Assembly (NCBI RefSeq): GCF_003334355.1
Contig: NZ_QOWP01000006.1
Direction: 5' to 3' (one strand)
DNA from: Escherichia coli
GTDB taxonomy: Bacteria; Pseudomonadota; Gammaproteobacteria; Enterobacterales; Enterobacteriaceae
Length of the DNA: 64,000 nt
In this document: positions 39,401 to 39,579 of the stretch, one piece after another
How positions within the stretch are numbered: position 1 is the first letter of the stretch
Layout: the number at the start of each line of letters is the position of its first letter
Position numbers and translations under genes: made by a program
The notes under the pieces: generated by a model
The model's database searches: none
What the model saw: the letters and a program-made list of their open reading frames with translations, nothing else
Told to the model about the DNA's origin: nothing

Positions 39401-39579
39401 TCCCTACTCCACTCCTGCTATGCTTAACAAATTATTCATAGACTCTAAATAATTCGAGTTGCAGGAAGGCGGCAAACGAGTGAAGCCCCAGGAGCTTACA
39501 TAAGTAAGTGACTGGGGTGAACGAATGCAGCCGCAGCACATGCAACTTGAAGTATGACGAGTATGGCAGGAGTGGCAGC

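Follow-up and report, generated by a model that had tools for sequence, protein, structure and literature searches.

An ERIC repeat in the loop of a probable Shine-Dalgarno-burying hairpin between dxs and yajO of Escherichia coli

Results

Structure of the dxs-yajO spacer

We analysed the spacer between dxs and yajO in a stretch of 64,000 nucleotides of Escherichia coli DNA (RefSeq assembly GCF_003334355.1, contig NZ_QOWP01000006.1), which is called the window here and whose positions are used throughout. An initial annotation made from the sequence had pointed to a compound hairpin in this spacer and to a GTG within it, in frame with yajO, and had suggested for the structure a possible role in yajO translation or as a processing site in the transcript. 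The explanation that accounts best for the data, and which we hold with considerable confidence, is that the hairpin is part of a mobile enterobacterial repetitive intergenic consensus (ERIC) repeat, whose insertion point is the loop of a conserved hairpin in which the Shine-Dalgarno (SD) sequence of yajO is buried.

The dxs gene occupies 37538-39400, with its TAA stop codon at 39398-39400, and the ATG of yajO is at 39580; the spacer length of 179 nt given earlier was borne out by the sequence and the open reading frame (ORF) coordinates. The hairpin at 39485-39518 (GCCCCAG-gag-CTTAC-ataa-GTAAG-tga-CTGGGGT) has the sequence reported for it, and an inverted-repeat search placed its arms at 39486-39499 and 39504-39517. 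RNA of the spacer (200 nt) was predicted to fold at -80.5 kcal/mol, compared to -49.7 +/- 4.0 kcal/mol for dinucleotide shuffles (z = -7.7), and none of 200 shuffles folded as well. The opposite strand folded far more weakly (-66.5 kcal/mol, z = -2.9), because several pairs of the ERIC stem are G-U on this strand. In the predicted fold, the hairpin forms the apex of a continuous stem-loop of ~175 nt, from ~39403 to 39578, which is a composite of a 125-bp inserted repeat and a native outer stem in which the SD is paired. The initial annotation covered only the tip of this stem-loop, and the native stem went unnoticed.

Identity of the central hairpin

The ERIC element, also known as IRU, lies at 39438-39564 on the plus strand. 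The insert itself is 125 bp long and spans either 39438-39562 or 39440-39564, the boundary being ambiguous due to the AT present at both ends, and relative to dxs-yajO transcription it has the orientation of the ERIC2 primer. Using the sequences of the ERIC1R and ERIC2 primers from a published paper (both strings co-occur in 246 papers), we found one match each in the window, at 39480-39501 on the minus strand for ERIC1R and at 39502-39523 on the plus strand for ERIC2, with a single mismatch in each case and none expected by chance. The two sites abut exactly at the loop of the 39485-39518 hairpin. A search with a 132-nt query of the element found 52,624 places in complete E. coli genomes, with copies in 5,426 of 5,426 genomes and a median of 10 per genome (range 2-21), and further copies occur in Phytobacter, Kosakonia, Citrobacter and at other loci.

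Seven divergent copies were aligned, namely the E. coli dxs-yajO copy, those in the same spacer of Phytobacter and Kosakonia, and copies from another spacer in two further species. They share a consensus fold of 38 pairs, 8 of which show compensatory double changes, and two of these 8 lie in the inner stem of the 39485-39518 hairpin (CTTAC/GTAAG compared to CATAG/CTATG). Conservation of the stem pairing, for which the initial annotation had proposed a check, was therefore seen among ERIC copies; at the locus itself it is not seen across species, which lack the element there. We also looked for a lack of other genomic copies and for a lack of a consensus match, either of which would speak against ERIC identity, and found that copies and match were both present. 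Based on the primer matches, the genomic copy number and the fold shared by family copies, the 39485-39518 hairpin is almost certainly the central inverted repeat of an ERIC element. On the evidence given below, it is equally certain that the GTG at 39508 is not a start codon. The ERIC hairpin is, as a finding, already known. The copy is intergenic and within a transcribed unit, lying between the co-oriented dxs and yajO genes with Term-seq and RNA-seq signals across it.

The one Rfam model to match the ERIC part, RF02818 (V_AS5, 129 positions), aligned with the element over its full length, at 39438-39561, with E = 2.4e-10; it scored 52.5 bits, short of the 96 bits (gathering threshold) that membership in RF02818 requires. 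This sub-threshold match agrees with reviews that place ERIC in Vibrionaceae as well as in Enterobacteriaceae. RF02818, described as 'Vibrio RNA AS5', may model a Vibrio branch of the ERIC repeat and not a single antisense RNA gene.

The insertion is polymorphic within the species. A query of 580 nt that spans the spacer was fully covered in 2,844 of the 5,426 E. coli genomes, and the remaining 2,582 (48%), including O157:H7 and strain 83972, gave a two-piece match over 455 bp that was shorter by ~125 bp. Alignment of the two alleles showed that empty ones read ...AAATTATTC-AT-GGCAGGAGTGG..., and that filled ones carry 125 bp at this point with AT on both sides, the junctions being TTATTC-AT-(123 bp)-AT-GGCAGG. 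The duplication speaks to some extent against the ERIC reading, as it consists of AT, and reviews of ERIC give TA as the rule. A YajO scan with one genome per species placed dxs directly upstream of yajO in 80 of 80 Enterobacteriaceae loci, and in nearly all of them the spacer was 54-75 nt long and free of ERIC. Since such short spacers prevail in almost all other species, the empty state is the ancestral one.

The start codon of yajO

As the initial annotation had it, the GTG at 39508-39510 (plus strand) is in frame with yajO. It opens an ORF at 39508-40554 of 348 amino acids, of which the 24 extra residues are VTGVNECSRSTCNLKYDEYGRSGS. The count of four Cys/His-type residues given for this extension was wrong, as there are two cysteines and no histidine. 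An AGGAG lies ahead of the ATG as described, at 39568-39572, 7 nt before the ATG at 39580-39582 (plus strand). The preference for this ATG was upheld, since the GTG and all 24 codons lie in the mobile insert that empty alleles lack, and since RefSeq and the published start tables (TRAINSPOTTER and INRI-seq) give the ATG. Position 39580 is also the dominant 3' end found by Term-seq in K-12.

The ATG is the RefSeq start in empty, filled and long alleles, and all 80 orthologues align from residue 1 at this codon. An N-terminomics table of 2026 has as its database start the ATG at NC_000913 438133-438135, with the peptide MQYNPLGKTDLR and the support labels Ribo-RET and INRI, and INRI-seq called the ATG in 5 of 5 in-vitro replicates. 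We give virtually no credence to the alternative that the GTG is a genuine second start that yields YajO with a 24-residue N-terminal extension. It is true that no stop codon intervenes and that reviews describe open frames in ERIC elements, which are able to give rise to in-frame fusions. However, the 2,582 empty E. coli genomes lack the insert, as do almost all genera besides, the closest AGGAG ahead of the GTG (39488-39492) is separated from it by 15 nt, which is not a usable distance, and the codon is buried in the strongly paired central stem. The alignment of all orthologues from the ATG, start tables that list the ATG alone, and the amino acid composition noted above are also at odds with an extension. 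An in-frame GTG is to be expected from elements with such frames, and the one at 39508 results from the frame that is open through the right half of this copy.

A native hairpin around the Shine-Dalgarno sequence

The outer part of the composite stem-loop is present in ERIC-free alleles. Its 5' arm, CCACTCCTGC, is an anti-SD at 39409-39418 (plus strand), which begins 9 nt after the dxs stop codon and pairs with 39566-39575, the 3' arm GCAGGAGTGG on the same strand, which holds the AGGAG of yajO (39568-39572). We aligned 72 distinct ERIC-free spacers from ~30 genera, and these follow one pattern, in which a pyrimidine-only tract after the dxs stop is followed by (C)CGCTCCTGCTATGCTTAA, a variable loop, (A)GCAGGAG(C/T)GG and the ATG. 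In this alignment, 88.6% of the cells of the native stem were paired, compared to 21-56% when the 3' partner was slid by 1-3 columns, and five pairs showed double changes. RNAalifold independently predicted the same stem with six invariant core pairs and covarying flanking pairs (CG/UA/UG; CG/UG/GC/GU; GU/GC/AU/UA).

When 70 ERIC-free spacers were folded singly, the SD was paired with the upstream arm in the minimum free energy structure of 69. The median predicted cost of opening the AGGAG in ERIC-free spacers was 16.1 kcal/mol, which fell to 5.2 kcal/mol when the upstream part was shuffled, and 69 of the 70 native spacers exceeded all 20 of their own shuffles in this cost. In E. coli, opening was predicted to cost 15-17 kcal/mol in empty alleles, 13.7-15.9 kcal/mol with ERIC (13.7 kcal/mol in this strain) and 10-11 kcal/mol in the long form of the element. 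As the cost is similar with and without ERIC, the insertion would leave the lock on the SD in place, with the ERIC sequence predicted to fold on itself within the loop and the SD to stay buried.

Three points weigh against a functional role of this stem. The covariation is limited to three flanking pairs from related sequences, the six core pairs being invariant; the occlusion energies are thermodynamic predictions; and the in-vivo Ribo-RET values, as re-tabulated in INRI-seq Table S2, are 0 for yajO and also 0 for dxs and ispA, and hence uninformative. The alignment and the folding predictions together nonetheless indicate that, very probably, a functional SD-occluding hairpin exists at this position across Enterobacteriaceae. 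In four ERIC-free loci, a search of Rfam at E values up to 1 gave no match to the native hairpin, and hence no known riboswitch, leader or thermometer model, and the accessible text of the literature that mentions yajO held no description of it.

The 8 nt that lead from the dxs stop to the hairpin (39401-39408), like the corresponding 8-25 nt at the other loci (L005-L084 of our collection), are made up of C and T with few exceptions in nearly all genera (for example TCCCTCCCCTTTCC), and their number varies. This stretch may be a spare anti-SD or a Rho-binding (YC-rich) patch.

A hairpin so close to the end of dxs could also serve translational coupling, in which ribosomes that terminate at the dxs stop melt the hairpin and license translation of yajO. 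The 9 nt between the stop and the 5' arm in E. coli would suit such a mechanism, and the opening of masked SD sequences by upstream translation is well established, for example at rpmI-rplT. However, the distance from stop to stem varies between genera from 8 to 25 nt, and the CTCC partner of the SD is at least 13 nt beyond the stop. A position at least 13 nt past the stop is beyond the reach of a terminating ribosome, given its footprint and the position of its helicase. Rho termination within yajO, described below, further implies that translation often does not follow, and we regard coupling as improbable.

RNA ends and Rho-dependent termination in K-12

E. coli K-12 carries the dxs-yajO ERIC, so that published data from this strain can be placed on the window. 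In NC_000913.3, yajO is at 437161-438135 and dxs at 438315-440177, and the window position is 39580 - (v3 - 438135), where v3 is the coordinate in this version. Older papers use version-2 coordinates (v2), with yajO at 436385-437359; we verified the conversion, including a control at dps.

Adams et al. (supplementary files 1 and 3) report a Term-seq 3' end at 438135(-), with 38,352 reads, which is the A of the yajO ATG (39580) and five nt past the last pair of the outer stem. Its Rho score is 2.89 ('significant'); as an intrinsic terminator it scores 1.03, below the cut-off of 3.0. An intrinsic terminator was rejected as the origin of this end on that score and on the lack of a U-run, as there is no terminator-like site in 39250-39700, where no U-run follows a GC-rich stem. 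The same authors found a Rho termination region at 438058(-), 77 nt into yajO, and a lacZ fusion with the yajO 5' untranslated region (UTR) and ORF whose expression was more than 2-fold higher in rhoR66S. This fusion starts at TCCACTCCTGC (primer JW10397), which is position 39408, and it therefore includes the anti-SD. In general terms, Adams et al. consider that Rho termination inside coding sequences probably reflects repressed or regulated translation initiation. INRI-seq found the annotated translation initiation site of yajO to be active in vitro on a template without the anti-SD.

The 5' end at 39408, which Adams et al. took as the start of the yajO 5' UTR, fits an extended -10-like sequence, TGGCATAAT, at 39393-39401 on the plus strand. 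This sequence overlaps the dxs stop codon and is lineage-restricted (28 of 84 loci).

The K-12 3' end and the effect of Rho are what an occluded SD predicts. In the mechanism that we propose, read-through transcripts from dxs and those with a 5' end at 39408 would have their SD locked in the native stem; yajO would then be translated poorly, Rho would terminate within the untranslated yajO RNA, and the RNA would be trimmed back to the foot of the hairpin, giving the 3' end at 39580. ERIC, inserted in the AT-rich loop of an older hairpin, would fold on itself and leave the lock intact, and the in-frame GTG would be accidental and unused. We infer SD occlusion as the cause of Rho termination at yajO. 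Of the two roles first proposed for the hairpin, the one concerning RNA ends is supported by the dominant 3' end at the foot of the composite structure and by the RNase III-cut duplexes inside it, which are described below. The role in translation does not belong to the central hairpin, as the element capable of such control is the native outer stem.

The ERIC core was also present in the Term-seq 3'-end entries at aceF-lpd (127845+) and pgk-fbaA (3071314-) of NC_000913.3, with ends just 3' of the ERIC central hairpin, and in the Term-seq list it occurred in this RNA orientation only (6 entries, as against 0 for the reverse complement). This suggests that ERIC hairpins define RNA ends generally.

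Antisense transcription and double-stranded RNA at the ERIC terminus

Since the two native arms are complementary to each other, CCACTCCTGC is also found on the minus strand of the 3' arm. From there the minus strand continues as CTGCTATACTcgt in K-12, as CTGCCATACTcgt in the window and as CTGCCATGAAtaa in the empty allele. Alleles with ERIC thus have an extended -10 element, TGn-TATACT or TGn-CATACT, whereas those without ERIC have no T at -7. The ACT half of the hexamer comes from the ERIC terminus and the remainder from the mirror of the native 3' arm. This putative junction antisense promoter lies at 39560-39568 on the minus strand (TGCCATACT in this strain, TGCTATACT in K-12), with its hexamer running from 39565 to 39560 and a predicted transcription start (+1) at A39553. 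A mirror hexamer that has both the -11 A and the -7 T was found in 3 of 3 Escherichia loci that bear ERIC, compared to 4 of 77 ERIC-free loci.

Published data place signals at this junction. An antisense transcript of Conway, given in the cluster table of Huang et al., starts at v2 437386/437387, which is 39553/39552 in the window. A sigmaS chromatin immunoprecipitation (ChIP) peak assigned to yajO by Peano et al. covers v2 437329-437469, or 39470-39610, and the junction promoter is inside this peak, ~20 nt from its centre. Huang et al. (PMC7373196, Table 2 and supplements) captured with p19 an RNase III double-stranded RNA (dsRNA) cluster, S-43, at v2 437,393-437,579 (39360-39546, strand unspecified), which is the fourth most abundant dsRNA cluster over coding genes and is labelled 'New AS'; the word 'ERIC' does not occur in the main text of that paper. 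Duplex reads of S-43 come from both genomic strands with 2-nt offsets and are phased every 22 nt from 39545, and Adams et al. report an antisense 3' end at 39342.

We consider it probable, on the junction sequence and these mapped ends, that the right terminus of ERIC completes a minus-strand promoter that drives an antisense RNA. Such an RNA would pair with the sense ERIC RNA, and the duplex would be cut by RNase III. Two observations do not fit readily into this account. A second published antisense transcription start site (TSS), from differential RNA sequencing (dRNA-seq), maps to 39446(-), or K-12 v2 437493 (+), in the left arm of ERIC, where the transcript starts with AGAGUCUAUGAAUAAUUUCU; it has no obvious -10 and may be a processed end. 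One S-43 duplex also shows a 90-fold strand asymmetry that a sense/antisense origin leaves unexplained.

This asymmetry (79,229 for the sense read over the ERIC centre and 882 for its antisense partner) would be easier to reconcile with RNase III cutting the intramolecular ERIC hairpin itself, whose stem is long, and reviews describe Correia/NEMIS repeats as RNase III substrates. However, the duplex partners derive from both genomic strands at the same coordinates, with the 2-nt offsets and 22-nt phasing described above, the antisense transcript and its 3' end were mapped independently, and the p19 authors note that imperfect stem-loops are not captured. An intramolecular origin of the dsRNA is therefore difficult to sustain, and we give it little weight beside the sense/antisense duplex.

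Position 39565, just outside the right end of ERIC, is G in this strain and A in K-12, which changes the minus-strand -10 from CATACT to TATACT. The difference adds one pair to the outer stem in K-12 and could alter the strength of the antisense promoter between strains.

Whether the ERIC copy matters at all has to be weighed at this point. It could be a neutral, selfish passenger, with the 3' end, Rho termination and dsRNA either independent of ERIC or of no effect on the expression of dxs and yajO. SD occlusion is predicted to be about equal with and without ERIC, half of E. coli do without the copy at no obvious cost, and the spacer offers no AT-rich target apart from the loop, so that target preference alone could account for repeated insertion. 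Set against this, only loci with the ERIC insertion have the minus-strand -10 (TATACT or CATACT), whose position agrees with those of a mapped antisense start and of the sigmaS ChIP peak, and the fourth most abundant dsRNA cluster over coding genes in K-12 lies on ERIC. Other ERIC copies carry Term-seq 3' ends in the present orientation only, by the count given above, and five of the five ERIC-carrying loci of this operon outside E. coli, among the loci examined, have ERIC in the same orientation. We find a purely neutral passenger rather doubtful, and argue from the junction promoter and the dsRNA cluster that ERIC has at least a molecular consequence.

A candidate sigmaS promoter within the native hairpin

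The pairing of the native stem explains the invariant CTCCTGC in the spacers, but not the equally invariant TATGCTTAA. At 39417-39427 on the plus strand, GCTATGCTTAA matches KCTAYRCTTAA at 11 of 11 positions, with the hexamer TATGCT at 39419-39424 and a predicted +1 at about A39431. KCTAYRCTTAA, as PMC5650638 quotes it, is the consensus that Weber et al. (2005) gave for the -10 region of sigmaS promoters. The match comes with TG at -15/-14, C at both -13 and -8, T at -6 and a discriminator rich in A and T, and Peano et al. list features of this type as sigmaS determinants. The consensus has a single match in the 64-kb window, where 0.07 are expected, and exactly one match, at the same place on the plus strand, in 72 of 84 dxs-yajO loci. 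The dps locus, which served in the coordinate check and became an unplanned positive control, also carries KCTAYRCTTAA, and the rule that +1 is 7 nt after the hexamer gave 848951 there, compared to the published 848950 (v3). The table of Peano et al. lists yajO among sigmaS-bound genes, its sigmaS dependence being cited to Weber 2005.

A transcript that started at 39431 would be without the anti-SD. The predicted cost of opening its SD was 2.0 kcal/mol, compared to 12.6-13.7 kcal/mol for longer transcripts, and over 77 spacers the median was 2.8 for the short start and 15.8 for the long one. We regard the evidence as evenly balanced on whether this embedded sigmaS-type -10, recognised by its sequence, fires at ~39431 to give translatable transcripts that lack the anti-SD.

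The published transcript and binding data count against a sense promoter here. The sole sense 5' end recovered is the one at 39408, which still has the anti-SD, and there is none near 39431 in the accessible datasets. The K-12 sigmaS ChIP peak (39470-39610) excludes the sense -10, ending 43 nt short of 39417-39427, and fits the antisense junction promoter better; on these coordinates we rejected the peak as a mark of the conserved sense -10.

The same two observations favour a different account of the invariant CTCCTGCTATGCTTAA, which is that it is kept for a reason at the RNA level, such as a site for a small RNA or a protein or a requirement of the hairpin, and not as a sigmaS promoter. The ChIP peak does not cover it, the 5' end recovered is upstream of it, and its TTAA forms the base of an inner loop stem in many genera. 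Against this account stand the complete match to a consensus expected so rarely in 64 kb, its exact retention in 72 of 84 loci, in contrast to the variable loop sequence next to it and the variable, lineage-specific TGGCATAAT, and the success of the same +1 rule in locating the dps start within 1 nt. It would also have to accommodate the sigmaS dependence of yajO in the table of Peano et al. and the fact that a start at the motif is predicted to leave the SD open in all 77 spacers, and no Rfam family covers the motif. Constraint at the RNA level is thus a possibility that we take seriously, short of preferring it.

If the embedded -10 is a promoter, the dxs-yajO spacer could act as a switch with two states that is conserved in Enterobacteriaceae, and the promoter from which an RNA starts would determine whether its yajO is translatable; we put this forward tentatively. 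RNAs that read through from dxs would carry the anti-SD, so that yajO would be silent and the RNA terminated by Rho, while a sigmaS start just past the anti-SD would leave the SD open. In that case YajO, which provides an alternative route to the isoprenoid precursor 1-deoxy-D-xylulose 5-phosphate (DXP), would be produced for the most part in stationary phase or under stress. Both states would have survived at least two insertions of ERIC into the loop, and in Escherichia an antisense promoter born at the junction would add a third layer by feeding RNase III.

A mini-ORF from the invariant ATG in TATGCTTAA was considered and rejected, since 42 of 70 such frames stop before the SD, control frames do equally well or better (44 of 70 and 67 of 70), and there is no SD ahead of it. 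Over the native/ERIC junction, at 39424-39453 on the plus strand, there is a promoter-like site that matches at 10 of 12 positions, with the -35 TTAACA at 39424, a spacer of 18 nt and the -10 AATAAT at 39448-39453; it has no other support, and K-12 has TTAAGA at its -35.

Other alleles and neighbouring repeats

A second, independent ERIC insertion is present in the same loop and the same orientation in a Phytobacter/Kosakonia-like clade (loci L027, L031 and L039, at ~2356-2489), where the copies are 74-78% identical to that of E. coli. Comparison with the empty relative L049 (AATCA-TA-AGCAGG) shows a clean TA duplication. Locus L038, with a spacer of 85 nt, has kept the two ERIC ends alone and is an internally deleted form.

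The long form of ERIC is found at the same locus in both E. coli (EC581, L004:625-704) and E. albertii (L006:2368-2447), where a nested insert of ~78-80 bp with three small hairpins follows ...GGGGTGAACGA and the spacer measures 257 nt. The nested insert was detected in 649 of the 5,426 E. coli genomes with a median of 1 copy, at an identity of at least 99% in 120 genomes and of 90-95% in 513. ERIC copies also lie in the ispA-dxs spacer, just upstream of the dxs start and in the same orientation to the operon, in Citrobacter sp. 18056 (L022:443-524) and Enterobacteriaceae bacterium RIT691 (L081:442-559).

The spacer of the ERIC-free E. coli allele (L001:501-554) is exactly 54 nt long, which places the dxs stop and the yajO ATG in one frame; GCTTAA supplies another TAA in that frame. 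The 179-nt spacer with ERIC puts the two in different frames, which is probably of no importance. Downstream, yajO is followed by REP-type repeats, as judged by sub-threshold matches to the Rfam model naRNA4 (REP-derived RNA) in Klebsiella grimontii (L075:3579-3658) and Salmonella diarizonae (L021:3509-3545).

Discussion

The structure at 39485-39518 is not a riboregulator specific to yajO, and the GTG within it is not an alternative start; both come from a mobile repeat that is present in about half of E. coli. Together, ERIC and the native anti-SD stem would explain two signals in K-12, namely the top-ranked 'new antisense' dsRNA cluster and the Rho-dependent 3' end at the yajO AUG. These features are strain-specific, which calls for caution in their interpretation. 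The embedded sigmaS-type -10 and the antisense promoter completed by ERIC are new readings of existing data. The first of them, set in the native hairpin, offers a compact and testable example of translational competence that depends on the promoter, and yajO, as an alternative route to DXP, is of interest to those who engineer isoprenoid pathways. The second shows how the terminus of ERIC can complete a -10 hexamer on insertion, which may hold for other copies. The reviews of ERIC, which are the part of that literature covered here, do not mention such a role for its terminus.

In size (125 bp, compared to ~127 bp) and architecture, the copy between dxs and yajO resembles the ERIC/IRU/RU-1 repeats described previously (Sharples & Lloyd 1990; Hulton et al. 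1991; De Gregorio et al. 2005; Wilson & Sharp 2006). It is an imperfect palindrome with a central inverted repeat that matches the PCR primers, it is intergenic in a transcribed operon and has many copies per genome, and its presence varies between strains. Also shared are variants lengthened by an internal insert of ~70-80 bp or shortened by internal deletion, ORFs that run through the element, and effects on RNA that depend on orientation. The copy differs in being flanked by a duplication of AT instead of TA, in its position in the loop of a host regulatory hairpin, and in that its terminus appears to complete an antisense promoter. The Vibrio family V_AS5 has the same long-hairpin architecture; the copy is related to it in sequence and is not a member, and Rfam describes V_AS5 as an antisense RNA gene and not as a repeat. 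REP and Correia/NEMIS elements are also repeats that bring hairpins into operons, where they define RNA ends and are cut by RNase III. At yajO, however, the dominant 3' end is at the foot of the composite of native stem and ERIC, and not at the ERIC centre, and the RNase III products come from a sense/antisense duplex.

The candidate sense promoter is like the sigmaS promoters of the dps type (Weber et al., 2005) in matching 11 of 11 positions, including -13C, -8C, -6T and an A/T-rich discriminator, and differs from them in that the sigmaS ChIP peak lies outside the yajO motif and the sense 5' end recovered lies upstream of it. The native hairpin, finally, resembles the leader and intercistronic hairpins that sequester an SD and cause Rho-dependent polarity, with which it shares a perfect anti-SD/SD stem, a large predicted opening cost and Rho termination in the downstream ORF. 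It differs in that no trans-acting opener is known at yajO, and we propose that release would occur there by the choice of promoter, as the anti-SD lies upstream of the embedded -10, and not by temperature, a ligand, a small RNA or an upstream ribosome.

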